This document shows, piece after piece, positions 1-42,422 of a stretch of DNA of 64,000 nucleotides. Below the pieces are notes generated by a model. The model was not told where the DNA came from, ran no database searches, and saw only the letters and a program-made list of their open reading frames with translations. The translations under genes were made by a program, and so were the position numbers. Source of the DNA: an uncultured Planctomycetia bacterium (GTDB lineage Bacteria > Omnitrophota > Gorgyraeia > VGKH01 > JBHPFN01); contig CAYOSQ010000002.1 in assembly GCA_964406665.1 (NCBI GenBank), positions 118,219-182,218 of the forward strand, given 5' to 3'. Numbering within the stretch: position 1 is the stretch's first letter; each line of letters starts with the position of its first letter.

Positions 1-574
1 CAAGAATCTCTCGTTCTCTTAAAATCTCCCTGGAGATATCGGTAACAAGTGATATGCGGTTTTTACCTTTTTCCTTAGATACATATAAAGCTTTATCTGC
101 TAAGTCAATCAATCTTAGTGTATCTTGTGCATCGTCGGGATAATTGGCTATTCCTATGCTTAGATTGATTTTTAAGCTCACCTGAGCAGATTTTAAATTA
201 AACTTATTTCCAGATATTGCTTTTGAGATTTTCTTTGCAATATTCAGTGATTCGGTTAATGAGCCTCCAGGCAAGATAACAGTGAACTCATCTCCTGCGT
301 AGCGGACAACAGTATCTTCAGATCTGACGCACTCGCTTATGATTTCAGCAACCGTCTTTAAAACTTCATCTCCAGCCAAATGGCCGTACTTATCGTTGAT
401 TAATTTAAAATCATCTATATCAATCATAAAAAACCACATGTTTCCGCCAGAGCTTTTAGTGCGAGAGATCTCTTCGGGTAGATATTGATAGAGGTATCTC
501 CGGTTAAAAACATTGGTTAACTCGTCACGGAATACTAGTTGCTCAACTCTTTTTTTTGGCTTATTTTCTGCCAT
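1..574 (-). CDS. GGDEF-domain diguanylate cyclase. The N-terminus lies at 574; the C-terminus runs past the window start.
   Basis: My translation of the minus strand from the ATG at 574 gives MAENKPKKRVEQLVFRDELTNVFNRRYLYQY...DIDDFKLINDKYGHLAGDEVL...RYAGDEFTVILPG. This is a GGDEF fold with an AGDEF active-site variant. The frame stays open to position 1. It is absent from the ORF track because it is edge-truncated. Confidence 0.7.
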   Translation of the reverse strand, partial: MAENKPKKRVEQLVFRDELTNVFNRRYLYQYLPEEISRTKSSGGNMWFFMIDIDDFKLINDKYGHLAGDEVLKTVAEIISECVRSEDTVVRYAGDEFTVILPGGSLTESLNIAKKISKAISGNKFNLKSAQVSLKINLSIGIANYPDDAQDTLRLIDLADKALYVSKEKGKNRISLVTDISREILREREIL

Positions 575-3193: not shown

Positions 3194-4927
3194 TTATTCT
3201 AACGGTTCATCAGGAGTAGTTACTTTTAGTACCTCCTCTAAAGACGTAAGGCCGGCTGCAACTTTTTTTATTCCATCTTCTCTTAAGGTAACCATTCCTT
3301 CTTTCCTACTTTGTTGTTTTAAAACATTATCAGCTGCTCTGGATAAAATTAATTCTCTAATTTTTGGAGAAAGAGGCATAATTTCGGAAATACAAACTCT
3401 TCCCTTGTAACCAGTTTGAAGACAAGTTTTACACCCTTTACCTTTATAGAATTCTATAGAACTTTCCGCATTAGTGGTAATCCCTAACCGCTTAGACATC
3501 TCTGGACTAATATTAAATGGTTCTTTACACTTCTCGCAAATTTTTCTAATGAGTCTTTGAGCTACGATAGCTATAACTGAAGAAGAAATTAAAAAAGGCT
3601 CAACTCCCATGTTCACCAATCTAATTATAGACCCGGGAGCAGTTGTTGTATGAAGAGTGCTTAGAACGAGATGTCCTGTTAAGGCAGATTTGATTGCTAT
3701 GTCAACAGTCTCAAAATCTCTAATTTCTCCGATCATTATAGTGTCAGGGTCTTGTCGCAATATGGATCGTAGGCTTGAAGCAAAGGTAAGCCCAATGTCT
3801 GGTTTAGCTGTTACTTGATTAATTCCTCGTAACTGATATTCCACAGGGTCTTCAACAGTAATTGCATTTTTCTCAGGAGAATCAATGTATTTAAGTATCG
3901 AATAAAGCGTGGTAGTTTTTCCAGAACCCGTAGGACCACAAACAAGTATCATACCATGTGGTTTTAAAGAACACTCTTTTAAAACTTCTAATGGTTTTCC
4001 TTCAAACCCTAGTTTATCAATATCTAAAATTGCATTAGCTTTATCTAAAATTCTAAGTGCAACTTTTTCTCCCCAGCCAGTAGGTAAAATAGAAACACGA
4101 AAATCCACTTGTCTATTTTCAATCATCGTCTTGAATCTTCCATCCTGAGGAAGACGGTGCTCCGCGATATCCAGAGAAGACATAACCTTAATACGTGAAA
4201 CAATTGACGGATGCAGCGTTTTCGGAGGAGAATCAAGAGCCCTTAAAGTACCATCAATTCTAAAACGGATCCTTAATTGCTTTTCCATAGGTTCAATTAA
4301 AATGTCGCTAGCCTTAGATTCAATCCCTTGCCTTAAGATTGCCTCAGTTAATTTAATTACAGGAGCTTCCTGTGTTAAGCGCGTTAGCTCATCTATAGAC
4401 ATAGACTCTTCATCAGCTCCTTTTATTAATTCTAGTTTCTCCAACTTGCTTTTTTCCATAGAATCCATTATTTCTTCTAGTACCTGGTGAGAGTCTTCTG
4501 AATAATAGTTTTCAATTGCTTCTAATATTTCTTTTGGACGAGCAACCACGGTATTTATTTCAAATCCAGTTAATGTTTTTGCATTGTCTATAGCAAAAAT
4601 ATTTAAAGGGTCACCAATAGCAAGGGTTAGAGAATTTCCAATTTTGGAGACAGGAATGATTTGGTGGAATATAGCAACATCTTTGGGAATAACTTTGATT
4701 ACTTCTGGAGGAATTTTGATGCGTGCAAGCTCTATATTGGGGAGCCCCAAGCTTTCGCTTAAAGCAATTGCAAGGTCGTTTTCATTAACAAGTTCTAGCT
4801 TAACTAGTATTTCGCTTAATCTCCCGCCTTTTTTCTTTTGTTCAGCTAAGGCTTTGTCTAGGTCTTCCTTTGTGATGAGCTTATTCTTTAATAAAAGCTC
4901 CATTAAGCGTTCTTTAAGCGAAATCAT
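3194..4927 (-). CDS. pilB: Type IV pilus/T2SS assembly ATPase, PilB/GspE family, paralog 2.
   Basis: Walker A GPTGSGKTTT and a tetracysteine CEKCKEP...CKTCLQTGYKGR are present. Length is 577 aa with a GspE_N-like N-terminus. Confidence 0.9.
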   Translation of the reverse strand: MISLKERLMELLLKNKLITKEDLDKALAEQKKKGGRLSEILVKLELVNENDLAIALSESLGLPNIELARIKIPPEVIKVIPKDVAIFHQIIPVSKIGNSLTLAIGDPLNIFAIDNAKTLTGFEINTVVARPKEILEAIENYYSEDSHQVLEEIMDSMEKSKLEKLELIKGADEESMSIDELTRLTQEAPVIKLTEAILRQGIESKASDILIEPMEKQLRIRFRIDGTLRALDSPPKTLHPSIVSRIKVMSSLDIAEHRLPQDGRFKTMIENRQVDFRVSILPTGWGEKVALRILDKANAILDIDKLGFEGKPLEVLKECSLKPHGMILVCGPTGSGKTTTLYSILKYIDSPEKNAITVEDPVEYQLRGINQVTAKPDIGLTFASSLRSILRQDPDTIMIGEIRDFETVDIAIKSALTGHLVLSTLHTTTAPGSIIRLVNMGVEPFLISSSVIAIVAQRLIRKICEKCKEPFNISPEMSKRLGITTNAESSIEFYKGKGCKTCLQTGYKGRVCISEIMPLSPKIRELILSRAADNVLKQQSRKEGMVTLREDGIKKVAAGLTSLEEVLKVTTPDEPLE

Positions 4928-5382
4928 TCTTTATTTCCTTCTCCATAATATTTATCTATTGAATGTTTAATGTCAGTAGATGTGCTTACAAAAGTTTGTA
5001 TTGTGCATTCAGTTATCATTTCCACATCCTCAATTGCATGTGTATTTAGAGGATTTGACATTGCTAGAGTTAAGCTTTTTCCAATTTTATCAACCGGGAT
5101 AAGGCAGTATTGCCTGCAGACATTTTCTGGAATAACAGAAATAACCTTGGGATCAATTTCGTAGCAAACAAGCGGTAGAAACGGAAAGCCATACTGATCA
5201 GTTAGGGCTTGAACAATATCTTCTTCTTTTGCATATTCAAGAGAAACCAACACCTCTCCAATTAAGCCACCCTTTTTCTTTTGAACTTCAAGAGCCTCAG
5301 AAAGCTGCTCTGGTGTTATAATACCGTTTTCTATAAGGAGTTGACCTAATTGTTTTTTTGTTAATCTATTAAGTTGAGTCAT
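4924..5382 (-). CDS. Standalone GspE_N/MshEN-type domain protein, a putative c-di-GMP receptor.
   Basis: The 152-aa protein carries two tandem 24-residue motifs, LGQLLIENGIITPEQLSEALEVQ and LIGEVLVSLEYAKEEDIVQALTDQ. These match the MshEN c-di-GMP-binding consensus RLGxxLxxxGxIxxxxLxxALxxQ. There is no ATPase domain. Its stop overlaps the pilB2 start by 4 nt. Confidence 0.65.
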   Translation of the reverse strand: MTQLNRLTKKQLGQLLIENGIITPEQLSEALEVQKKKGGLIGEVLVSLEYAKEEDIVQALTDQYGFPFLPLVCYEIDPKVISVIPENVCRQYCLIPVDKIGKSLTLAMSNPLNTHAIEDVEMITECTIQTFVSTSTDIKHSIDKYYGEGNKE

Positions 5383-5391
5383 AAAGTCACC

Positions 5392-6237
5392 TTATGACAA
5401 AATTTGGTTGCTTTCTTCCGGATTAGTTTCTGTTAAAATTCTTTGGGCCTTTTCAATCAATTCTTCTGAGGTCATACCATCAACTGGGTTTTCTGTGACA
5501 ACTCCTGTTATGGTAAGATTTAGAGTTTTTTCTGTTGAAGAAAAAATACTTTCAACTTTTTTTCTGATATCTTCAGCTAGTACAATAGCCTGTTTTTTGT
5601 TTCTTTCTGGAACCACTACGGCAAATTTTTCGTCAGAAAATCTTGCAACTTTATCTATTTCGCTGGTGCAATCTTTAATAATATTAGAGATAGTCTTCAA
5701 TGATTTTTCAGCAGAGCTAAAACCAGATGATGACACAATATTTTTGAAGCGGTCAACTTTTATCAACATGAAAGCGCATGGTCTTTGAAAGCTAATGGCT
5801 CTTTTTATCTCTTCTTCCAGCTTCTCTTTTAAAAAGGAGGGCTTGTATAGTCCCGTAAGGGAGTCCTCGACTTCTAAACTTTTAACCTTTTCTGATAAAG
5901 CACTTAAAGAATTGTTTAGGCTTCCGATTTCGTCGGACCCGCCGATAGTTTTTTTAGCACTTTCATAACCTGCGGCAATACCACGAGCAGATGAACTTAC
6001 ATTAATAATTGAATCAATGACTCCCTTTAGAATAAAGAAGCCCAGCAAGGCAAAAAAGAAAGCCAATGTTAACACAAGACCTAAGTTGTCAGCAATAAAT
6101 GATTTAGAAGCAGAATTGGGAAATATGTAGTTTAGAAGAAGTAAAATCGGAATTATGGTGGTAAGGCAAAAGGCTATTAAAATCTTAGATTTTAAACCAC
6201 TTGAGTTTATAGATATATTTTTTGAAAAACGACCCAT
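5392..6237 (-). CDS. Membrane protein (2 TM) with a degenerate GGDEF domain.
   Basis: N-terminal TM helices are followed by DSLTGLYKPSFL...RFSDEKFAVVVP. This has the GGDEF fold, but the GGEEF motif is replaced by SDEKF, so the protein is probably catalytically inactive. Confidence 0.6.
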   Translation of the reverse strand: MGRFSKNISINSSGLKSKILIAFCLTTIIPILLLLNYIFPNSASKSFIADNLGLVLTLAFFFALLGFFILKGVIDSIINVSSSARGIAAGYESAKKTIGGSDEIGSLNNSLSALSEKVKSLEVEDSLTGLYKPSFLKEKLEEEIKRAISFQRPCAFMLIKVDRFKNIVSSSGFSSAEKSLKTISNIIKDCTSEIDKVARFSDEKFAVVVPERNKKQAIVLAEDIRKKVESIFSSTEKTLNLTITGVVTENPVDGMTSEELIEKAQRILTETNPEESNQILS

Positions 6238-6377
6238 TTTTCGCCTCCCCGTTTATTCTAAGTTATTACTATACATAACATTTGCATTAATGTCAATGAA
6301 TTTTGAATGTTTATCAGCGGGATTTTTTGATTTTATTTATTTAATTGCAGATAGTTGTGGCTTTACTTGATGTAAAA

Positions 6378-11606: not shown

Positions 11607-12896
11607 TTAAGCCTGATTAAATTCTGCTCCGAGCTTGGATAAGTCCATGAGGAAGTCGGGATAGGATTTATTGATGCATTTAATGTTGCTTACCGTAACA
11701 CCAATTTTTAGCCCCAGTATGCAAAATGCCATAGCTAGCCTATGGTCATTGTGCGGATTTAAGGTTTTACCAGTGATTAGTTTACAATTAGGATAAATAA
11801 TCAGACTACCTCTCGTCTCTTTAATTCTTGCGCCGACTTTTTCGAGCTCTACTCTTAAGTCGCTTATTCTATTTGACTCTTTTGTTCTAGTGTGCTCTAT
11901 GCCGTAAATTTCAGTTTTGCTATTGGCGAAAAGGGCCAAAACTGACAATATGGGCACTAAATCTGGACAATCTCTACAAAATAGCTTGGCACCTTTTATT
12001 TTTGAAGACTTTAATATGGTTAAGCCGCTTTTGCTAATTTTATATTTAACTCCCATGCTTTTAAGCATAGGCAATATTTTCATATCAGCTTGGACAAAAT
12101 CATCTTTCTTTAAATTGTTGAAATAAATTTTAAAGTTATTTATGGCAGAAGCCACCATAAAAAAAGCACCTAGACCGTAATCGCCAGGAATATTAAAGTT
12201 TTTCAAAGCTTTGTATTTCTGATTTCCCCTAACTTTAAATTCTCGAGAATTACTTTTTTTTACATGAATCCCAGCTTTTTTTAAAGATAAGATAGTCATA
12301 TCGATGTAAGGGTTGGAAACCAAGCAGCTCCCTTTGATTTTTACAATCGAGTCTTTGGATAAAAAAGGACCAAGAATTAAAAGCGAAGAAATAAATTGAG
12401 AGCTGAGCCTTCCGTCAATTACAATGCGACCACCTTTCAGACTTCCTTTTTTTACATTAATAGGAGTGCAGTGATTTTTTCCTGTTCCAGATATTTTAGC
12501 ACCTTGTTTTTTTAAAACATCAATCAGTGGTTTATTTGGTCTAGAATTTAAAGTACCGGAACCTAATATTTTGGTGTTGTTTTTTGTCAGGGATGCTATG
12601 GAAAGCAGAAAGCGTAACGTAGTACCAGATTCTTTTACATTAAACGTTTTTGGAAATTTAATTTTCCCTTCAACGCCAGAAATCATACAAGAAGATTTAT
12701 TCAGAAATTTGATTTTTGCACCAAGTTGTCTACAGACATTAATTGATGCTTCTACATCGTCACATAAAGAAAGGTTTTTGATTGTTGATTTTTTTCCCAG
12801 AGAAGCTATGAATACAGCTCTGATGCTGTATGATTTTGAAGCTGGAGCAGAAATTTTTCCACTTAAGGAAAGATTCGGTTTTAAAACAAGGTTCAT
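11607..12896 (-). CDS. aroA: 3-phosphoshikimate 1-carboxyvinyltransferase (EPSP synthase).
   Basis: It has the EPSPS fold. GKISAPASKSYSIRAVFIA and HNDHRLAMAFCILGL match the AroA DHRMAMAF motif rather than MurA. It lies within an aromatic amino-acid gene neighbourhood. Confidence 0.75.
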   Translation of the reverse strand: MNLVLKPNLSLSGKISAPASKSYSIRAVFIASLGKKSTIKNLSLCDDVEASINVCRQLGAKIKFLNKSSCMISGVEGKIKFPKTFNVKESGTTLRFLLSIASLTKNNTKILGSGTLNSRPNKPLIDVLKKQGAKISGTGKNHCTPINVKKGSLKGGRIVIDGRLSSQFISSLLILGPFLSKDSIVKIKGSCLVSNPYIDMTILSLKKAGIHVKKSNSREFKVRGNQKYKALKNFNIPGDYGLGAFFMVASAINNFKIYFNNLKKDDFVQADMKILPMLKSMGVKYKISKSGLTILKSSKIKGAKLFCRDCPDLVPILSVLALFANSKTEIYGIEHTRTKESNRISDLRVELEKVGARIKETRGSLIIYPNCKLITGKTLNPHNDHRLAMAFCILGLKIGVTVSNIKCINKSYPDFLMDLSKLGAEFNQA

Positions 12897-33972: not shown

Positions 33973-34560
33973 TTATCTGGCAGAAACTCCGGGCAAACGT
34001 ACCGAAGTAGATATTTCAATTCGTGGATTTTCGATTGATTCTGGTTGCGAAAAATCATCCAAAGCAGCTATGGAAAAATTAATAAAGGGAGACGACGAGT
34101 CTCCAGTATCGTCAAAATTTACAGAAATGATATTGTTCGCAATAATATCATAGTTTAAGCCAGAATCATGGGAAACTCGAAACTGTCCGTTTCCAGCATT
34201 GTAATCGTAAAGTATGCTATAGGTATCAGCTGCATCAACTTTTCCATCATAGGGAAAACTATCTGGTCTAATTTGAACACCTTCACCACCTGCAACTATC
34301 ATAACCCCACGCATAGATCCGTCTCCGGGATCAAGCGCACCATAGCCAATAGCCTTGACTAAATCAGAAACAACACTTTCTGTTGCCAAGCCAACTTCAT
34401 TGGCTATTTGAGATTGTTTGCTGGCATTATGAAGCATTCGCCTGGCAACGATATCAACGCTTGTAGCAGCTCCGATTGCAAGCGCAATTAGACCAGCCGC
34501 AATTATAAGCTCTGTTAATGTAATACCTTTTTTATTAGAGAAGTGTTTAATTTGGCTCAT
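33973..34560 (-). CDS. Type IV pilin-like protein (minor pilin/pseudopilin) with a prepilin N-terminal cleavage/methylation motif.
   Basis: N-terminus KKGITLTELIIAAGLIALAIG, which is a class III signal with Ile in place of Phe. Confidence 0.6.
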   Translation of the reverse strand: MSQIKHFSNKKGITLTELIIAAGLIALAIGAATSVDIVARRMLHNASKQSQIANEVGLATESVVSDLVKAIGYGALDPGDGSMRGVMIVAGGEGVQIRPDSFPYDGKVDAADTYSILYDYNAGNGQFRVSHDSGLNYDIIANNIISVNFDDTGDSSSPFINFSIAALDDFSQPESIENPRIEISTSVRLPGVSAR

Positions 34561-34996
34561 CCCAGGAAATAATTATTTCAACTTTACGCATCGGCTCGCC
34601 AGCAAAAGGCTCGGTAACTTCATATATCACAGATAAGTTTTCAACATTAGTTTTAAGCGGGTGATCTGCCGGAACAGAACCAGCAATTTCTGTTGGAACG
34701 CCCAGCGGCCATAATGGATTTGCTGCATTCTCCCAGAGCTCTGCTCCAACGCCTCTGTTAAAATTTTCTAGAAAATCAGTTGCTAAAGTTGCAGCTTGAA
34801 GTCTACGTTGTGACCGGCTGATAAATTTATTTGCTGCAACAAAAGCACCAATAATTCCTGCTGTAACAGTTGCCAGAAGAATCATTGAGATTAGTATTTC
34901 AATTAGAGTAAACCCTGCCAAACGGTTGTTTTTCGCTAACCGCAAAGCAGGGTTTAATATTTTTTTTCTTAAATCTTTGCTTTTCAAATTACGCAA
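34547..34996 (-). CDS. Type IV pilin/pseudopilin.
   Basis: AGFTLIEILISMILLATVTAGIIG follows an unusually long basic leader of ~28 aa. Confidence 0.65.
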   Translation of the reverse strand: MRNLKSKDLRKKILNPALRLAKNNRLAGFTLIEILISMILLATVTAGIIGAFVAANKFISRSQRRLQAATLATDFLENFNRGVGAELWENAANPLWPLGVPTEIAGSVPADHPLKTNVENLSVIYEVTEPFAGEPMRKVEIIISWDEPN

Positions 34997-34999
34997 TGA

Positions 35000-35386
35000 T
35001 TAAAAAGCGTTTAGAAATGTTCCAGTACCAGAAAGAGATCCGTCTCCACACATTATAACAGTTCCTCCTGCTGCTTCTGTCCAAGTAGCAGTAAGAGTAA
35101 AGTCAGCACTAGCGCATGCTCCAGGTACGACAATTCCATAAGTGAACGCGGCTCCGCCAGCGATATCAGGATCTTCTATATCCAAATCACCTTTATTAGC
35201 AGTATAGGAATTGTTTACGGCAAAATAGCGGAATTCAGCACTTCTTAAAGCTCCAAGGTTTAAAACAGCTTCTGAAGCTGTTGCCTTTCTGGTTGTGTCA
35301 ATAAACCTAGGTAGTGCCATGCTGGCTAAGATACCAATAATAATTACAACTATAATCAACTCTAACAACGTAAAACCTTTTTTCAT
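35000..35386 (-). CDS. pilA: Type IV major pilin candidate (PilA/GspG-like).
   Basis: MKKGFTLLELIIVVIIIGILA prepilin signal on a 128-aa protein with a C-terminal Cys pair (GACASADF...IMCGDG). Confidence 0.8.
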   Translation of the reverse strand: MKKGFTLLELIIVVIIIGILASMALPRFIDTTRKATASEAVLNLGALRSAEFRYFAVNNSYTANKGDLDIEDPDIAGGAAFTYGIVVPGACASADFTLTATWTEAAGGTVIMCGDGSLSGTGTFLNAF

Positions 35387-35472
35387 CTTTCCTCCTTTTA
35401 AGTTTTTTATATATTAAAAAATATAATTATTGTCCTATTGTTTTGTTTAGCTACCACCTCCTTTTGTTTGCC

Positions 35473-36705
35473 CTATCCTCCAAAACCACGCATTGTTGCC
35501 ATGTTAATTATCGGCAAAAACATGGAAATTACAATAACACCAACAAGCAGTCCCATAATTACCAAAGCAATTGGTTCAAATAAAGTTGTCAGACGTTCAG
35601 TGAAAGTATCAACGTATTCTTCGTAAAACTGAGCGATTCTTTTAAGCATGTTGCCTAAATCGCCAGTTTCTTCTCCGATCATGATCATCTGCACAACCAT
35701 TGGTGGAAAGAATCCACTTTTAATCATAGGGTCTACAACAAGTTTCCCCTCACGAACATTATTTTTAATATCCTCAACAACTTTTCCCATGATGCCTTCA
35801 CCCATCATTCTCTGTGTTATTTCTAATGTGTAAAGTATGGGAACTCCACTTTCTATTAAAATAGACATTTGTGAAGTAAACCGTTCAATCATTGCAACTT
35901 TAAAAAAGTTTCCAAAGAGCGGAATTTTAAAAGTAATAGCTTCTATAGTTCTTCTGCCGATTGCTGTCTTGGCATATCTTTGAACAGCATAGATTATAGC
36001 ACAAAAACCTAAAATCAATAACAAAAATTTATTTCTTACAAATTCGAAAAATCCCAAGACTCCCAATGTTAAAGCAGGCAATTGCATGTTTAGCGATTCA
36101 AATATTTTATCGAACGTCGGGATAATCTTATAAGCAAAAAAGGCAACTGCGCCACAACAGAGAACAACAAGTATTACTGGGTAGAACATAGCGGATACAA
36201 CCTTGCCTTGAAAAGCAGCTTTTTTTTCAAGATATACTGCCATTCTATTTAAAACCTGAGGAAGGGTTCCCGAGGCTTCGCCGACTTCACTTAAACTAAC
36301 CCAAAATTGATCAAAAACTTTGGGATATTTTGCTAAGCCACTACTTAACGAAAGACCTCTTTCTAAATCCTTTTTTAGGCTCACCAAAGTTTCCTGCAGC
36401 TTTTTACTTTCCACCTGAAGACTTATTATGTCAATACTTCTTAATAAGGTGACTCCCGCATCAAGCATAGTAGCAAGCTGTCGAGCAAAAGTTACTAAAT
36501 CTCGAAGATTAAGGTTGCCACGTTTAGCTTTTTTTCCAATGACCGTTGTTTGTTTTTTTGGTTCCTTTGCTTCTGGCTCGATTCTGATAACAAAATAACC
36601 TTTTGATTGCAGAGATTGAGCTAGTGCTTCTTTAGTTTTAGCTTCTTCAGAAGCAGTTATTCTTTTACCTGTGTTATCTGTTATCGTGTATGAAAATCTT
36701 GGCAT
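35473..36705 (-). CDS. pilC: Type IV pilus platform protein PilC (GspF family).
   Basis: Two T2SSF repeats and 3 TM segments in a 410-aa protein. Confidence 0.9.
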   Translation of the reverse strand: MPRFSYTITDNTGKRITASEEAKTKEALAQSLQSKGYFVIRIEPEAKEPKKQTTVIGKKAKRGNLNLRDLVTFARQLATMLDAGVTLLRSIDIISLQVESKKLQETLVSLKKDLERGLSLSSGLAKYPKVFDQFWVSLSEVGEASGTLPQVLNRMAVYLEKKAAFQGKVVSAMFYPVILVVLCCGAVAFFAYKIIPTFDKIFESLNMQLPALTLGVLGFFEFVRNKFLLLILGFCAIIYAVQRYAKTAIGRRTIEAITFKIPLFGNFFKVAMIERFTSQMSILIESGVPILYTLEITQRMMGEGIMGKVVEDIKNNVREGKLVVDPMIKSGFFPPMVVQMIMIGEETGDLGNMLKRIAQFYEEYVDTFTERLTTLFEPIALVIMGLLVGVIVISMFLPIINMATMRGFGG

Positions 36706-36708
36706 TTT

Positions 36709-38421
36709 TTAAACCTCTCCGTATGTTACGCTTAAAACTTCTTCTAAGCTAGTAATTCCTGCCTCTACTTTTTTTATACCATTGTCAAAAAGAGACATCA
36801 TACCGGCTTTTCTTGCCTCAGCCTTAACTGTTTGATAATCTACTTTCTTTCGAATGAGACTCTTGATGGAATCAGTAACCGCCATAACTTCACCTAGTAA
36901 AACTCTACCCTTGTAACCAATCTGATTGCATTCCTCACAACCCTTGGCGCGATAAATCGGTCCCTGAGCATTAATTTTGATATCGCCTAAATCATCAGGC
37001 TTTGGTTCGTAGGCCTCTTTACATTTTGGACACAATCTTCTAGCAAGTCGCTGTGCAACAATACACAATAGAGAAGGCATTAAAAGATATGGCTCAACCC
37101 CGATATCTAATAGTCTTGTTACAGCAGATGGTGCATCGTTAGTATGCAAGGTGCTCAATACCATGTGTCCGGTTAAAGATGCTCTAACGCATATTTGAGC
37201 GGTTTCTAAATCTCTGATTTCGCCTACCATTATTACATCAGGATCTTGGCGCAAAAATGAACGCAATGCTGAAGCAAAAGTTAAGCCAATTTCTGGCCGA
37301 ATTTGTACCTGATTTATATCTTCGAGACGATATTCAACTGGATCTTCGATGGTGATTATATTCATTTTGGGATTAACAACTTCATTTAATCCAGCATAAA
37401 GAGTTGTTGTTTTTCCGCTTCCGGTTTGTCCAGTTAAAAGAACAAGGCCGCACATAGAATGAATTGATCTTCTAAAAACCTCAAGCTGCTTTGGTTCAAA
37501 TCCAAGAACAGATAAATCTAAAGGAGCATTCCCTTTATCTAGAATTCTTATTACAACTTTTTCTCCATATATTGTGGGAATACAAGAAACTCTTAAATCA
37601 ACAACGCGATCTTCCAGCTTTACAATAAAAGCTCCATCTTGAGGTAATCTTTTTTCTGCGATATCAAGCTTTGTTAAAATCTTTATTCTTGAGACCAAAG
37701 GCAAGTGCAAATGTTTTGCCGGAGGAGGTATTTCATAAAGAATACCATCAATCCTATATCTAAGGTTGATTTTTTCTTTAAAAGGTTCTATGTGGATATC
37801 AGAGGCTCTTTCATCAATTGCTTGTCTTATTATCAAATCAACCAATTTAACAACCGGAGCTTCTTCTGCTCTGGCAATTAATTTATCAAGGCTCAACTCT
37901 TCGTGTTCAAAAACCCTGTCTTCGATTGAGGTTTCTACCCCATATGACTCCTTGACTGCTTCTCCAAGCATATTTGTTTTAGAATAAAAATCTTCAATCG
38001 CTTTTAGAATATCGGTTCTGGGTGCAACAACGAGGTTAATTTCGCAGCCAGTAAGCTTTTTTAAATTATCAATAAGAATTACATTTAGTGGATCAAAGAT
38101 AGCGCAGGTTAAAGAATTCAAATTTCTTGATAAAGGTAAAACAAGATTTTTTTGAGCAAAATCTTTTGTTATCAATTGATCCAGTTCTTGATCTTGAGAC
38201 GGAGTTAGCAAACCAGAACTTTTTGAAGCATAGGGAATCGAAAGCTGTTTTCCTAGAGCAGCTACCATGTCTTCTTCTTTTATTATACCGAGTCTAATTA
38301 GCACTTCTCCGATACGTCCACCTTCTTGCTTTTGGGCAGACATAGCTTTTTCCAGCTGCTCTGAAGAAATGAGATTTTGCTTAATTAATATTTCGCCAAG
38401 TCTTAAATGTGTTTTTGTCAT
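36709..38421 (-). CDS. pilB: Type IV pilus assembly ATPase PilB, paralog 3, with a canonical MshEN c-di-GMP-binding N-domain.
   Basis: Walker A LTGQTGSGKTTT, a tetracysteine CPKCKEA...CEECNQIGYKGR, and N-terminal motifs RLGEILIKQNLISSEQLEKAMSAQ and RIGEVLIRLGIIKEEDMVAALGKQ. Confidence 0.9.
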   Translation of the reverse strand: MTKTHLRLGEILIKQNLISSEQLEKAMSAQKQEGGRIGEVLIRLGIIKEEDMVAALGKQLSIPYASKSSGLLTPSQDQELDQLITKDFAQKNLVLPLSRNLNSLTCAIFDPLNVILIDNLKKLTGCEINLVVAPRTDILKAIEDFYSKTNMLGEAVKESYGVETSIEDRVFEHEELSLDKLIARAEEAPVVKLVDLIIRQAIDERASDIHIEPFKEKINLRYRIDGILYEIPPPAKHLHLPLVSRIKILTKLDIAEKRLPQDGAFIVKLEDRVVDLRVSCIPTIYGEKVVIRILDKGNAPLDLSVLGFEPKQLEVFRRSIHSMCGLVLLTGQTGSGKTTTLYAGLNEVVNPKMNIITIEDPVEYRLEDINQVQIRPEIGLTFASALRSFLRQDPDVIMVGEIRDLETAQICVRASLTGHMVLSTLHTNDAPSAVTRLLDIGVEPYLLMPSLLCIVAQRLARRLCPKCKEAYEPKPDDLGDIKINAQGPIYRAKGCEECNQIGYKGRVLLGEVMAVTDSIKSLIRKKVDYQTVKAEARKAGMMSLFDNGIKKVEAGITSLEEVLSVTYGEV

Positions 38422-38424
38422 TTT

Positions 38425-39927
38425 CTATCTTCTAAAATTTTTAATAAGATCAATTTTGTCCAGTTCGCTATTTATTTCCCTATAACGCTTTACTGGTTTA
38501 TCTTGCTCCCTTTCTAAGTTATAGGTAGATATCATTGTGTTATTATTGTTCGCCGCTATACTTCTCTCGTTTATTATACGAGGTGTTATGAAAATAATCA
38601 ACTCTCTATCTTCATCTTGACTTTTATCATTATGTCTAAACAATACTCCCATTATGGGCACATCACCTAAAAAAGGAACTTTCGTAACTGTTTGATTTAG
38701 CTGCTTTCTTAAGAGTCCGCCTATGACAACAGTCTGACTATTTTTTATCCTAACAACTGACTTAGTGCCTCTTTCTTCCGGATCTTTAAACGTGGTTCCC
38801 CCGAAGGTTCCGCCCTGCCTGGCTTCACTAACTGTTGGTTCGATAAACATAGTGATTTCGCCGGTTACATAGTTAACCTGTGGGGTGACTTTTAAAGAGA
38901 CACCTGTTGTTGCCCTTTCTGCTTCAGAAGTTTGGCTAGCCGTCCCTTCCGAAGCCTGTGTTGTAGTTTTAAGCCCAATTGCTTCGTCAGTTGTAATTTT
39001 AATCTCAGCTGTTTCATTGCTAAGTGTTAAAAGGCGTGGTCTAGCTAAATATCTTGTTTTTGCATCAGACTTGAGTATATTTATGAGCCCTGTGAATCTA
39101 GATAAATCCAACGTTCCAACAGTATATGTAGTAGGGGTACCCGATTTTGCAACCGCCTCTGAATTTTCAAAAGGCCAGTATGATGTATGCGTTGGACCAC
39201 TATAGCTTATGGGTTGCTCACCAATCTTAAAGCCAATTTTATCAATAAGGTTTTTACTTACATCTAACATTTCAACCTCAATTAAAACCTGAGGAATAGA
39301 AATATCTAATTTTGATATTGTGCTTTCAATTAAAGGGAATTGACTAGCAATATCAGTTACAAGCAAACTGTTTGTACGAGAATTTTCAACCACTCTTCCA
39401 TTTTCAGTGAGCACTTCCTCAACAGCTTCTTTTATGCCGCTGCTTCCTTCTGCGTCATCCGAATCGCTGCTTCCTTCAGCAGAGAATCCTTCAGAGATTT
39501 GTTTTGTTAATCGAGAATTGGTAGTTGTAGCATATTTTAAATAAAAAATCTTAGTAATAGTTTCAATTTTAGGACGATCTATTTCTTTGACCACGAAAAT
39601 ATTTCCACCTTTTTTCATCTCGTATGTTAAATTATTAGCTGTTAAAATGCTCTCAAGCGCTTTCTCGACAGGAACTTTCTCAAGGTAAATAGTGAGGGTT
39701 TTATCTTCAATGGAACTATTGGCGATGAAGTTCATTCCTGACTGCTGAGAGAATATCTTCAGCACATCTTTTAAGTTTGCATCTTTAAAATCCATAGATA
39801 TCTGTTTTGAATATTCGGGATAAATAAAACTATCAAAAGCATCTCCTAGCTCAAGAAAAGAGCCTAAAAAAATGAGCGTAATTAAGAATATCGGTAAAAC
39901 GAAAATCTTTCTTCCTAATATTTTCAT
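38425..39927 (-). CDS. pilQ: Type IV pilus secretin PilQ.
   Basis: C-terminal secretin domain (VVIGGL...VPFLGDVPIMGVLFRH...RELIIFITPRII), an N-terminal signal/TM and secretin_N-like region. Confidence 0.85.
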   Translation of the reverse strand: MKILGRKIFVLPIFLITLIFLGSFLELGDAFDSFIYPEYSKQISMDFKDANLKDVLKIFSQQSGMNFIANSSIEDKTLTIYLEKVPVEKALESILTANNLTYEMKKGGNIFVVKEIDRPKIETITKIFYLKYATTTNSRLTKQISEGFSAEGSSDSDDAEGSSGIKEAVEEVLTENGRVVENSRTNSLLVTDIASQFPLIESTISKLDISIPQVLIEVEMLDVSKNLIDKIGFKIGEQPISYSGPTHTSYWPFENSEAVAKSGTPTTYTVGTLDLSRFTGLINILKSDAKTRYLARPRLLTLSNETAEIKITTDEAIGLKTTTQASEGTASQTSEAERATTGVSLKVTPQVNYVTGEITMFIEPTVSEARQGGTFGGTTFKDPEERGTKSVVRIKNSQTVVIGGLLRKQLNQTVTKVPFLGDVPIMGVLFRHNDKSQDEDRELIIFITPRIINERSIAANNNNTMISTYNLEREQDKPVKRYREINSELDKIDLIKNFRR

Positions 39928-40385
39928 CGTTTTTTCCTCCTGGCTTTTAATTTTGAATCGTCATTTTGATCTTCAGTTTTAACAAAGAATAGGGTATCCT
40001 GATATAAAATCTGAACACCCTCTTTACTAATATCTACGATATGAGCACCGCTAATTTTATCCCCCAGGCTAACCACGGAATCATTTATGATTGCTTGTGG
40101 GTTTTCAGTATTCCAAACAACACCTTGAATTGAAAGGATGGGCGGGATTATTTCAATCTTTTTTTCAGGCAGTTTGAAATCTATTTTAGGTATTTTTTTA
40201 TCAGGCTCAACTTTTTGAGGTTTGGGAATCCAAGATTTAAAAGGACTTCTGGAAAAGTTGAAATTAAAACCAACCGGAAAGTTATTGTCCACTTGAGCAT
40301 ATATTGAAAGCGTGGAAGAAAAAGTAAGATAAGCAATAGATAGAATAAATAATAATTTCTTTATCACTTTATTAAAACACTCCAT
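39924..40385 (-). CDS. pilP: PilP-like pilus assembly protein.
   Basis: A small secreted protein immediately upstream of pilQ with a C-terminal beta-domain (QGVVWNTENPQAIIND...VSLGDKISGAHIVDI). Confidence 0.45.
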   Translation of the reverse strand: MECFNKVIKKLLFILSIAYLTFSSTLSIYAQVDNNFPVGFNFNFSRSPFKSWIPKPQKVEPDKKIPKIDFKLPEKKIEIIPPILSIQGVVWNTENPQAIINDSVVSLGDKISGAHIVDISKEGVQILYQDTLFFVKTEDQNDDSKLKARRKKR

Positions 40386-40912
40386 ATTTTTAATTCAACA
40401 CTTAAATTTTCTTTTTCTTCAACCACGTTTTGCTCTCGAGCACTTTTGGAAACAGACAGGCTGCTAATGAAAAGTGACTTTTTGTTATTTTCCAGGCTGC
40501 TAATGAACTTGCCTAACCTAGCAAAATCAGTTTGAAAACCTAGTCTTATAGGAAATTTTGTATATAAGCCTTTATCAATGGGTACCTCTGGATTAAGTGA
40601 TTGAATTGAAATGTTATTATTTTTTAACGTCTCAGTAGCAATTTTAATTAATTCGTCAGTAGATGCTCCTTCCAGTGAATCTTTTTTGTAGCCGCTAATT
40701 TTGACATCAAGATCAACAATTTCTTTAATATGCTTTTCAAGCTTCAGCTCTTTCGAAAGAGTTTTTCTGAAAGCTGAAATTTTTTTGGATTTATTTACAA
40801 ACATTGATCTTGCGAACAGTAAAGAAACAAGAGCAATGGCAACACTAATTGCAATTGTTTTATTTTTTATGATTTGTTCAACATCAATTTTTTGTAAAGA
40901 TTGAATATCCAT
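40364..40912 (-). CDS. pilO: PilO-like inner-membrane pilus alignment protein.
   Basis: Single TM, a coiled coil and a periplasmic domain; located between pilMN and pilP. Confidence 0.5.
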   Translation of the reverse strand: MDIQSLQKIDVEQIIKNKTIAISVAIALVSLLFARSMFVNKSKKISAFRKTLSKELKLEKHIKEIVDLDVKISGYKKDSLEGASTDELIKIATETLKNNNISIQSLNPEVPIDKGLYTKFPIRLGFQTDFARLGKFISSLENNKKSLFISSLSVSKSAREQNVVEEKENLSVELKIWSVLIK

Positions 40913-40913
40913 T

Positions 40914-42422
40914 TTATTTACATTTAATTAAAAACTTTGAAACACGCCACTGTTCTATGGCAGCTTGACTAATATTGCTAAGAACAATAGATTTAAATTT
41001 TGTTTTAAATTCTGTATTATTTTTTACAAGTGATAAAAAGTTGTTGATGGCATTAAGTTGCTCAGGTTCATCTTCAAGGTAAGCATAGCCATTAATTTCA
41101 AAGGCTAAAGCTCCTGTTGATTCTCCGTAGTTCAATTCAGAAATCCACACGCCATCAGGCATAAGGTGAACAAGAGAATTAAGTATAGGGGTAATAGATC
41201 TGTCAAAATGAAGCTCCTCAAAAACTTTTAACTTTTTTTCAAATTCAGTTTTTAATCTTTCCAGCTGTTTTATATTAGCCATAGCATATTTAGGATCAAG
41301 TTGAGATTTCAAGCTTTCTATTTTTTTTAGCTTTGAACTGACAGAGAAACCCCTTACGAAATTCGACAATAAAATTAAAACAATAAAAGCAACAGCAAAA
41401 ATTCCTACGCGAATTACGATTTGATAATCAATTGGTTCGTCCTCGCTGAAATCCCTAGGTTTCTCTTCAAGGACATCTCTCTTCCTATATAAATTAATAT
41501 CTGACTGTGAACGGAATGACTGCCTTAAGGTAGAGCCGTAAGCCTTAAAGGATCCTAAATCAAAGTCATCGGTAATTTCTAAAGTATTGGTTATCAATTC
41601 AATTGGCGTATCTATTTCATTTTTTAAGTTTCCTAGCATTTCCGAAGTATCTTCTTTTGAGTGAAAGAATATCTTATTTACACTTGAGTCTGAAAACTGC
41701 CTACTGTAATAATCAAACGAAACATGAATTTCGTTTTTCAATCTTGAGATAAGGCTTACCATATCAGCTCCTCTGGGGTCTGAACCGAGATGACGGAATT
41801 TAAAATCTCTTATTAGCTGAGGAAAACCTCTTTCGATGATGCAGATACTTCCTCTTTCAGCAGACACTTCAACAATTGCGATTGTTTCATCTGGCTTTAT
41901 GACTTTCTTAAACAAGAATAATCTAAGCAGGCTAAAAGAAACAGGCTCCAAATAAAGAATTCTTAAGTTAGATTGTTCAAGTATGTATTGAAATTTGTCC
42001 AGGATGGTTTTCTTCATCCCGGCAAATGAACATTTTAGTCTAGCAGCTTTAGGGTCTTTTAGCTTTTGAGTAGCAAAATCAAAGTAGATTTCTTCAAGCT
42101 TGAAAGGAATGAATTTCCTTGATTCAAACTCTATAGCACTCTGCATCTCTGTTTTTGATACCTGTGGTATGAGAAAAGATCTCAATAAAACATCTTCTGA
42201 AGGCAAAGCAGCAATGACATCTCTCGTTTCAATGTTATTGGTTCTTATTGTTTTTTGAAGCAATGCAGTTAATTTGATTTCATCAGTCACTTCTACTATG
42301 TTGCTTTCCTGGCCTTCTGTTTCATAGGCAACACGATAATTCCTTATAATATTGCTTTTTTCTACTTCAACAATATCTAAAGCATCTACACCAAAATTTA
42401 TCCCTAAAAACTTATTGCCCAT
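40914..42422 (-). CDS. pilM: PilM-PilN fusion protein (actin-like PilM fused via a TM segment to a PilN-like periplasmic domain).
   Basis: A ~320-aa actin-like ATPase-fold region, then the TM helix IRVGIFAVAFIVLILLSNFV, then a ~150-aa coiled-coil/periplasmic region typical of PilN. Confidence 0.7.
   Translation of the reverse strand: MGNKFLGINFGVDALDIVEVEKSNIIRNYRVAYETEGQESNIVEVTDEIKLTALLQKTIRTNNIETRDVIAALPSEDVLLRSFLIPQVSKTEMQSAIEFESRKFIPFKLEEIYFDFATQKLKDPKAARLKCSFAGMKKTILDKFQYILEQSNLRILYLEPVSFSLLRLFLFKKVIKPDETIAIVEVSAERGSICIIERGFPQLIRDFKFRHLGSDPRGADMVSLISRLKNEIHVSFDYYSRQFSDSSVNKIFFHSKEDTSEMLGNLKNEIDTPIELITNTLEITDDFDLGSFKAYGSTLRQSFRSQSDINLYRKRDVLEEKPRDFSEDEPIDYQIVIRVGIFAVAFIVLILLSNFVRGFSVSSKLKKIESLKSQLDPKYAMANIKQLERLKTEFEKKLKVFEELHFDRSITPILNSLVHLMPDGVWISELNYGESTGALAFEINGYAYLEDEPEQLNAINNFLSLVKNNTEFKTKFKSIVLSNISQAAIEQWRVSKFLIKCK

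Follow-up and report, generated by a model that had tools for sequence, protein, structure and literature searches.

A stand-alone MshEN domain protein encoded beside tandem pilB genes is a candidate detached c-di-GMP receptor of type IV pili in Omnitrophota

To our knowledge, MshEN is one of only three widespread receptor domains for cyclic di-GMP (c-di-GMP), and nearly all work on it concerns copies that form the N-terminus of an ATPase or are fused to other output domains. Here we analyse a stretch of 64,000 nucleotides (the window) from contig CAYOSQ010000002.1 of an uncultured Omnitrophota bacterium, which encodes a protein made of this domain alone, MshEN_A, next to the tandem genes pilB2 and pilB1, and we argue that this protein is a candidate detached c-di-GMP receptor of the pilus motor. 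The uncultured phylum Omnitrophota comprises ultra-small bacteria that probably depend on hosts, and nearly all of them have type IVa pili; the survey of the phylum mentions neither c-di-GMP nor PilB (PMC10066038). Our searches of the literature on stand-alone or single-domain MshEN, Omnitrophota PilB or c-di-GMP found no description of the MshEN_A family or of the gene cassette in which it resides.

In MshE of Vibrio cholerae (VcMshEN; 5HTL; Wang et al. 2016, PMC5013675), the domain is the N-terminus of an ATPase, and its published motif, RLGxx(L/V/I)(L/V/I)xxG(L/V/I)(L/V/I)xxxxLxxxLxxQ, occurs twice with a 5-residue spacer. The backbone amides of Gly3 (numbered within the motif) bind guanine O6/N7, the position-1 Arg stacks on the guanine, Gln24 binds ribose and phosphate, and the substitutions G11L and G40I abolish c-di-GMP binding (PMC5013675). 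An Arg-independent site is found in Thermus thermophilus PilF, in which three such domains, termed GSPII, are fused in one chain: GSPII-B, with Lys and Leu at position 1, has an affinity of 6 nM for c-di-GMP, which L196R and K167R make weaker and K167L improves to 2 nM; replacement of Gln24 by Glu cuts affinity ~80-fold, and Q190E and Q218E together abolish binding (8PDK; Neissner et al. 2024, PMC11731258). The consensus has accordingly been extended to (R/K/L)LG, with a hydrophobic position 1 proposed as a predictor of very high affinity (PMC11731258). Sensing is encoded apart from the motor in Xanthomonas citri, where a PilB with a non-sensing N-domain is controlled by the PilZ/FimX cofactors (7LKM; PMC11656802), and the N1 fold is already established as a module through which GspL/PilM-type proteins and PilZ interact (PMC11656802). 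ATPase-less MshEN proteins are already known as a class: in Escherichia coli NfrB, Pseudomonas aeruginosa PA3740, Myxococcus xanthus FrgA and Bdellovibrio Bd2402, the motif serves, away from any ATPase, as a portable c-di-GMP module (PMC5013675), as it may in MshEN_A, but there the domain is fused to an output or other domain, whereas MshEN_A is the domain alone, locked to a pilB pair by gene order. Acinetobacter baylyi, finally, has two extension ATPases, PilB and TfpB, in one pilus system (PMC11656802), a likeness that bears only on the pilB2-pilB1 pair; no free MshEN takes part in that system, and both PilB1 and PilB2 score well under the cutoff of the NCBIfam TfpB model.

The gene for MshEN_A and its constituent parts are the following:

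4924..5382, minus strand: MshEN_A, stand-alone MshEN/GSPII domain protein of 152 residues without an ATPase; open reading frame (ORF) with an ATG start
5281..5352, minus strand: motif I, residues 11-34, QLGQLLIENGIITPEQLSEALEVQ; fits the published consensus except at position 1
5266..5280, minus strand: spacer KKKGG, residues 35-39; 5 residues, exactly the VcMshEN length
5194..5265, minus strand: motif II, residues 40-63, LIGEVLVSLEYAKEEDIVQALTDQ; Gly3, hydrophobic positions and Gln24 kept
4939..5193, minus strand: MshEN_C alpha/beta subdomain, residues 64-148; Pfam PF05157 match

Pfam recognises MshEN (PF05157) as the sole domain of the protein (residues 64-148, 64.3 bits; cutoff 23.1), and the NCBIfam model NF053729, a 53-residue MshE-type 'c-di-GMP_motif' model, matches residues 11-63 over its entire length (model positions 1-53 of 53; 65.5 bits, cutoff 38). 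No Pfam match to the T2SSE ATPase domain (PF00437) with its Walker A/B motifs was found, the protein stopping at residue 152, and the TIGR02538 model aligns only through its positions 2-140, with 82.8 bits versus a cutoff of 675. Profile, fold and motif layout place MshEN_A in the MshEN/GSPII domain family, and it is not a PilB, since it lacks the ATPase; the name 'type IV pilus assembly protein PilB' that the Joint Genome Institute (JGI) attaches to several family members is an over-annotation, given the missing T2SSE match and the TIGR02538 score far under cutoff. When compared with Protein Data Bank (PDB) sequences using phmmer, MshEN_A aligns near full length with the N-domains of Geobacter PilB (E = 3e-28), Thermus PilF (three separate domains) and Myxococcus PilB, and with V. 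cholerae MshE (5HTL) over residues 4-146 (E = 2.5e-16); the Geobacter and V. cholerae values indicate that the motif match reflects homology rather than a chance pattern. E. coli NfrB matches at E = 3.4e-16. The stop codon of the gene (TGA, 4926-4924) and the pilB2 start (ATG, 4927-4925) form a common 4-nucleotide ATGA, a Shine-Dalgarno-like AAGGTGA stands directly 5' of the MshEN_A start codon, and the gene begins 9 nucleotides past the stop of the preceding GGDEF gene. The initial annotation had described a 152-residue stand-alone MshEN domain without ATPase, translationally coupled to pilB2 through a 4-nucleotide overlap, and had quoted two motif peptides; all of this is borne out, the peptides lying at residues 12-34 and 40-63.

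The layout of MshEN_A, two 24-residue motifs with a 5-residue spacer, is the one the motif of Wang et al. requires, and the spacer has 5 residues in 79 of 80 family members. Motif I departs from the consensus at position 1 only (Q11, not Arg) and retains the turn glycine at position 10 (G20). Motif II has L40 in place of Arg at position 1, E49 in place of Gly at position 10, and Ile for Leu at positions 2 and 17. According to column statistics over the 120 best family sequences, which underlie all figures out of 120 given here, Gly3 is invariant in both motifs (G13 and G42, each 120/120) and Gln24 is kept in both (Q34 in 116/120, Q63 in 120/120). The hydrophobic triads at positions 2, 17 and 21 are preserved as well (L12, L27, L31; I41, I56, L60), the replacements of Leu by Ile being conservative and the positions conserved in the family: L12 occurs in 116/120, I56 in 120/120 and L60 in 117/120, next to G20 in 115/120 and L40 in 120/120. 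At position 1 of motif I the family has either Q or H, with K10 before it in 119/120, and position 10 of motif II, where MshEN_A has E49 and the consensus Gly, is K, G, N or E. The earlier description of both motifs as canonical therefore stands for the spacing, Gly3, the Leu clusters and Gln24, and fails for the position-1 Arg of both motifs and for Gly10 of motif II. L40 matches L196 of GSPII-B and falls inside the extended (R/K/L)LG set; the Arg-less site of MshEN_A has a precedent, because GSPII-B binds c-di-GMP Arg-independently with Leu at this position. As judged from the alignments, the c-di-GMP-binding residues of the solved complexes are kept in MshEN_A and are under strong purifying selection family-wide.

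The opposite trend is seen in the two ATPases encoded immediately downstream, and a third PilB lies elsewhere in the window:

3194..4927, minus strand: pilB2, PilB-type extension ATPase of 577 residues with a degenerate MshEN motif pair; T2SSE 457 bits plus MshEN, TIGR02538 659 bits
1486..3192, minus strand: pilB1, second PilB-type ATPase, 568 residues, with a degenerate MshEN motif pair; T2SSE 441 bits plus MshEN
36709..38421, minus strand: PilB3, third PilB-type ATPase, with motifs RLGEILIKQNLISSEQLEKAMSAQ and RIGEVLIRLGIIKEEDMVAALGKQ; its fit beats that of MshEN_A

In PilB2 (motifs RLMELL... and RLSEIL...), Gly3 is replaced by M9 and S38, and Gln24 of motif II by S59; across loci, the residue found at its Gly3 position is K, T or Q for motif I and, for motif II, usually S. 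PilB1 (RIVEII... and SLEKIL...) has V9 and E38 for Gly3 and E59 for Gln24 of motif II, and its homologs show I, L or V (motif I) and D, E or R (motif II) at position 3, with Glu replacing Gln24 of motif II in 49/64. Overall, Gly3 has been lost from both motifs of PilB1 and PilB2 in nearly all genomes examined (64-73), in agreement with the earlier view that the regulatory domains of these two ATPases are degraded, and their N-domains presumably do not bind c-di-GMP. The claim that MshEN_A fits the motif better than the adjacent PilBs is likewise upheld by the NF053729 scores (65.5 bits versus 54.3 for PilB2 and 40.3 for PilB1) and by key-residue scores out of 16+16 (14+12 versus 11+9 and 10+9). 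MshEN_A is the best motif only in relation to PilB1 and PilB2: PilB3, missed earlier, scores 66.7 bits and 14+16, its motifs being near-canonical with Asn for Gly at position 10 of motif I as the only departure. Identity between MshEN_A and its relatives in the window decreases from the PilB2 N-domain (44%) to those of PilB1 (38%) and PilB3 (35%). PilB1 and PilB2 are themselves 49% identical, both with intact Walker and Zn-finger motifs, and the PilB2 N-terminus is complete, aligning with PilB1 from residue 1.

Pairwise comparison of 62 genomes in which MshEN_A, pilB2 and pilB1 are all present showed a mean identity of 66.9% for the four-helix region of MshEN_A, 52.3% for that of PilB2 and 44.8% for that of PilB1, with the ATPase cores at 65-67%. 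These values indicate that the ligand-site region is constrained like a catalytic core in MshEN_A and is relaxed in the fused PilB copies. The whole of MshEN_A averages 66.5% identity, the C-subdomain being highest at 70.7%. Invariant in the C-subdomain family-wide are YGFP.LPL (residues 64-71), preceded by the invariant Q63, as well as D98, G101, L104-T105, E118, E121 and Q129-F131-V132. Three cysteines, C89, C93 and C126, are kept in 100/120, 116/120 and 118/120 family members, and C93 and C126 are missing from the N-domains of PilB1 and PilB2.

A structure of MshEN_A was predicted with AlphaFold2 from a 37-sequence family alignment (mean predicted local distance difference test score, pLDDT, 88.3; predicted template modelling score, pTM, 0.80). 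In the model, residues 1-7 are disordered, helices span residues 12-18, 24-37, 41-47 and 53-64, and an alpha/beta subdomain (a beta-sheet with flanking helices) follows; the turn between helices 3 and 4 in motif II is modelled at high confidence despite E49. The best Foldseek match in the PDB was 5HTL, 'MshE with cdg' (E = 2.6e-11), followed by PilF GSPII-A (9G1W, TM 0.83) and the GSPII-B c-di-GMP complexes (8PDK), with further matches to the X. citri PilB-N:PilZ complex (7LKM) and XpsE-N (2D28); the C-subdomain alone matches EpsE N1 in complex with EpsL (2BH1). MshEN_A is thus predicted to adopt the two-subdomain MshEN fold, a four-helix bundle plus an alpha/beta subdomain, which is the structure that the initial annotation had wanted checked.

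MshEN_A is a conserved family member and not a one-off oddity. A search of 5.8 billion proteins returned ~1400 homologs; the best 120 clusters among them are all 147-165 residues long and 63-80% identical to MshEN_A, and all of these 120 that bear an organism name are Omnitrophota. Relatives are encoded in at least 584 species-representative genomes of the phylum, including the complete genome of Ca. Velamenicoccus archaeovorus LiM (ortholog at L032, 8001..8450), and among the named family members of the protein searches none was shown to be an ortholog from outside Omnitrophota. Current annotations call the family members 'hypothetical protein' or give them the wrong name 'PilB'. To place the gene in context, ORFs were called and classified in 80 related Omnitrophota loci (L001-L080). 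The order MshEN_A-pilB2-pilB1 was observed in all 80, with MshEN_A and pilB2 spaced by no more than 10 nucleotides in 46/79 loci and overlapping in 27, gaps reaching ~200 nucleotides in some.

Our preferred reading, to which we assign a probability of about 0.55, is that MshEN_A is the detached, trans-acting c-di-GMP receptor of a tandem PilB motor that drives type IVa pilus extension. The trans supply of a regulatory domain degraded in PilB1 and PilB2, as raised in the initial annotation, fits the comparative data, because the site residues are kept in MshEN_A and Gly3 is lost in both ATPases. The protein would be co-transcribed and translationally coupled with two PilB ATPases in whose own MshEN domains the glycines that contact the ligand are gone. 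The four-helix N-subdomain of MshEN_A would bind one c-di-GMP through the backbone amides of G13/Q14 and G42/E43, two Leu/Ile clusters, Q34 and Q63, with Q/H11 and L40, hydrophobic or planar residues, stacking on the guanines instead of Arg, as in GSPII-B. The conserved C-subdomain, likely the partner-binding face, would dock on a partner, most likely PilB2/PilB1 or else the PilM/PilC platform, and pilus extension would thereby respond to the level of c-di-GMP, which the GGDEF and HD-GYP enzymes of the cassette would set. The functional equivalent would be a PilF-like multi-GSPII ATPase in which one GSPII (two, with the paralog MshEN_B described below) has become a separate polypeptide. Our data establish the domain identity, the predicted fold, the motif residues with their conservation, the degeneracy of the PilB sites and the conserved gene order; from these we infer ligand binding, its affinity, the partner and whether the effect is activating or inhibiting.

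Compared with VcMshEN, MshEN_A has the same two-subdomain fold, the same pair of 24-residue motifs with a 5-residue spacer, and the same Gly3, Leu clusters and Gln24, but it is a separate protein rather than an ATPase N-terminus, and Arg9, Arg38 and Gly47 of VcMshEN correspond to Gln, Leu and Glu, with Asp108 probably corresponding to Asn110. By analogy, MshEN_A would work most like a detached PilF GSPII-B domain: motif II begins with Leu in MshEN_A as it does in the Arg-independent site of GSPII-B, and both are MshEN copies additional to the proximal N1 domain of the motor. PilF mixes binding (B, C) and non-binding (A) GSPII domains much as the Omnitrophota cassette mixes the presumably binding MshEN_A and MshEN_B with the presumably non-binding N-domains of PilB1 and PilB2. 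PilF, however, carries all its GSPII domains on a single polypeptide, whereas the intact copies of the cassette are separate genes, and GSPII-B has Lys at position 1 of motif I, where the MshEN_A family has Gln or His, at an overall identity of only ~25%. The PilZ/FimX system is alike in logic, combining a non-sensing PilB N-domain with a separately encoded c-di-GMP receptor that docks to control extension, but its receptors have unrelated folds (a degenerate EAL domain in FimX and the PilZ adaptor), whereas MshEN_A, the proposed trans factor, is itself a paralog of the PilB N-domain.

A profile search of 1.84 billion representative proteins, yielding 31,353 matches at E = 1e-3 or better, places this arrangement in a wider range of architectures. 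The best 150 of the 31,353 include 71 single-MshEN proteins, many proteins with 2-7 tandem MshEN domains and no ATPase, and several PilF-like proteins with 2-4 MshEN domains and an ATPase. One metagenome representative (P0134) joins an A-like domain to a PilB2-like N-domain and a PilB2-like ATPase. In view of such PilF-like fusions, an extra MshEN ahead of an N1-bearing PilB is a recurring architecture, which in the case of MshEN_A takes the form of a separate gene. Among ten short representatives from this search, the four with organism names are all Omnitrophota, and one cluster member bears no other name than 'type IV pilus assembly protein PilB' (JGI). The tandem-MshEN proteins without ATPase (set P0121-P0270) include P0125 and P0131, of 1325 and 1323 residues, and P0171 (394 residues) consists of about six copies of the four-helix half alone.

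The cassette further contains genes with GGDEF domains on both sides of the MshEN_A-pilB2-pilB1 unit, and a candidate promoter:

6268..6296, minus strand: sigma-70-like promoter candidate TTGACA-17-TATAGT in the rodA/GGDEF spacer; 11/12 positions
5392..6237, minus strand: membrane-anchored degenerate GGDEF protein, 281 residues, directly upstream of MshEN_A; Pfam GGDEF 92.8 bits
593..1486, minus strand: REC-GGDEF response regulator, 297 residues, directly after pilB1; Response_reg plus GGDEF 142 bits, GGEEF A-site, RVVD I-site
1..574, minus strand: 5' portion of another gene with a GGDEF domain, continuing beyond the window; AGDEF A-site variant, RSED (RxxD) I-site

The cassette is preceded by mreBCD-pbp2-rodA in ~70/80 loci, as well as in the window, and a GGDEF-like gene, usually of ~475 residues, stands directly upstream of MshEN_A in ~50/80. 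The A-site of this upstream protein is degenerate throughout (SDEKF in the window; GDHEF, GDNEF or AEHEF in homologs) and the I-site Arg is lost family-wide, for which reasons we rejected it as a local c-di-GMP source or I-site receptor. In L044 (6894..7964) and L079 (6906..7982), an ATPase of ~356 residues, 27-41% identical to PilB2, is inserted between the degenerate GGDEF gene and MshEN_A, and its size suggests a PilT-type enzyme. The promoter candidate is the best match in the region, a consensus match only, and no terminator-like site was seen on the minus strand between 400 and 6500; a single transcript from this candidate through the cassette may be proposed, though weakly.

The slot after pilB1 varies among the 80 loci, being occupied by MshEN_B, by a REC-HD-GYP protein, by REC-GGDEF together with a large GGDEF protein, or by nothing, and the pilC and pilin genes come after it. 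The REC-GGDEF arrangement is that of the window and its closest relatives, and the REC-GGDEF protein of the window is, from its A-site and I-site sequences, probably an active diguanylate cyclase. The partial gene at the window start corresponds to a protein of 1200-1390 residues in L001, L004, L013 and L023. A REC-HD-GYP phosphodiesterase follows pilB1 in ~14 loci, including that of V. archaeovorus (L032, 12235..13407), so that one and the same slot holds opposite c-di-GMP enzymes in V. archaeovorus and in the window. MshEN_B is a second free MshEN paralog of ~150 residues, 36-51% identical to MshEN_A, in which Gly3 (25/26 and 26/26) and Gln24 are retained while position 1 is L, or F/Y/L. It occurs in 26/80 loci, 22-24 times directly after pilB1 (L003, L007, L009-L012, L015-L017, L024 and others, at ~12000..12650) and twice after the large GGDEF protein (L013 and L023, at ~16040). 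In the window, tblastn shows only four MshEN regions (MshEN_A, PilB1, PilB2 and PilB3) and no MshEN_B; by analogy with L013 and L023, the genome probably encodes one beyond the window start. The cassette forms the core gene cluster for type IVa pili in Omnitrophota, with c-di-GMP components interspersed.

Several observations weigh against MshEN_A being a c-di-GMP receptor of the PilB pair. Neither motif retains the position-1 Arg, and the Gln or His found there in motif I lies outside both the extended (R/K/L) set and the relaxed [RKPN] set of Wang et al.; the turn Gly10 of motif II is Glu in MshEN_A and Lys or Asn in most family members. PilF GSPII-A conforms to the consensus and nevertheless fails to bind c-di-GMP, owing to an Ncap-stabilised extension of helix 1 and inter-subdomain contacts (PMC12002112), and for this reason sequence alone cannot settle binding by MshEN_A. 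A T8-x-x-Q11 capping box in the MshEN_A family is conceivable, although the AlphaFold2 model predicts no extended helix, with helix 1 beginning at L12 without an N-terminal extension. Since PilB3 has near-canonical motifs in cis, c-di-GMP control of pili would not strictly need a trans factor, and gene order by itself does not tell whether the partner is PilB, PilM or PilC.

The departures at position 1 of both motifs and position 10 of motif II, together with GSPII-A as a natural, maintained non-binding MshEN, also speak for a ligand-independent role, in which MshEN_A mimics N1 and acts as a decoy or adaptor that competes with, or bridges, the N1 domains of PilB1, PilB2 and PilB3 at the PilM/PilC platform. 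It would thereby select the engaging motor or serve as a brake, its motif residues only holding the four-helix bundle. Such a role would suit a protein whose C-subdomain is its most conserved part (70.7%), given that the equivalent EpsE domain binds EpsL (2BH1) and the PilB N-domain binds PilZ (7LKM), and three PilB paralogs in one window imply a need to choose between motors. We nevertheless consider it rather unlikely: the invariant residues are exactly the ligand-contacting ones, Gly3 and Gln24 of both motifs, Gln24 is surface-exposed and unneeded for bundle packing, in PilB1 and PilB2, whose N-domains keep the fold, these positions vary without restraint, and the cassette is full of c-di-GMP turnover genes.

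The initial annotation had also suggested that MshEN_A is a c-di-GMP sponge, an idea that found no specific support. As such a buffer, MshEN_A would be made in abundance and bind with high affinity, doing nothing but sequester the ligand and having no protein partner. Hydrophobic position-1 residues do predict very tight binding, the protein is small and its gene has a good Shine-Dalgarno sequence, and the isolated N-subdomain of VcMshEN binds c-di-GMP by itself (PMC5013675); but for that very purpose the 53-residue N-subdomain would suffice, whereas MshEN_A keeps a full C-subdomain conserved above the N-subdomain. Its fixed position by pilB2 in 80/80 loci and the translational coupling point instead to roughly stoichiometric co-production with a partner, making a sponge improbable. 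A fission artefact or pseudogene, that is, the broken N-terminal piece of a PilF-like two-MshEN pilB produced by frameshift, nonsense mutation or assembly error, could account for the 4-nucleotide overlap with pilB2 and would recall the metagenomic fusions in which an A-like domain precedes the N-domain and ATPase of a PilB. This explanation is effectively refuted, as MshEN_A is a separate ORF of conserved length (147-165 residues) with its own start and stop in 80/80 independent genomes and 120/120 of the best protein clusters, some intergenic gaps reach ~200 nucleotides, the protein is under strong purifying selection (66.5% mean identity), and pilB2 possesses a complete N-terminus of its own.

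If MshEN_A is indeed a detached receptor of the PilB motor, a broader scenario may be put forward tentatively from the same comparisons, in which c-di-GMP sensing has moved off the pilus motor throughout Omnitrophota. MshEN_A and MshEN_B, both detached, independent of Arg and perhaps of very high affinity, would each pair with one subunit type of a hetero-oligomeric or dual PilB1/PilB2 motor whose own N-domains are ligand-dead; they would act as exchangeable c-di-GMP-loaded docking subunits, fed by the GGDEF/HD-GYP enzymes of the cassette and the degenerate-GGDEF membrane protein. Were this true, MshEN_A would be the first trans-acting MshEN receptor and represent a new mode of type IV pilus regulation, in a lineage whose pili are believed to mediate attachment in predation or parasitism. 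A free single-domain MshEN tied to a PilB pair with predicted ligand-dead N-domains would amount to a natural "split" of the receptor-motor fusion, making the signalling from N1/MshEN to the PilB motor or platform testable with receptor and motor separately expressed, mutated and titrated, and MshEN_A offers a concrete candidate target for c-di-GMP signalling in Omnitrophota.

PilB3 belongs to a second gene cluster of the window, resembling a pilus or type II secretion system (T2SS), which comprises:

33973..42422, minus strand: second pilus or T2SS-like gene cluster, including PilB3
40914..42422, minus strand: PilM-PilN fusion
40364..40912, minus strand: PilO
39924..40385, minus strand: unassigned ORF of 153 residues
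38425..39927, minus strand: secretin
35473..36705, minus strand: PilC/GspF
33973..34560, minus strand: pseudopilin

The large GGDEF protein of 1200-1390 residues, of which the window contains the 5' part of the gene, is the one that precedes MshEN_B in L013 and L023. Many records of metagenome-assembled genomes titled 'uncultured Planctomycetales' (L007, L010, L015, L017, L019, L022 and others) carry the Omnitrophota-type cassette at 62-67% identity, and the Planctomycetales title of these records is probably wrong.

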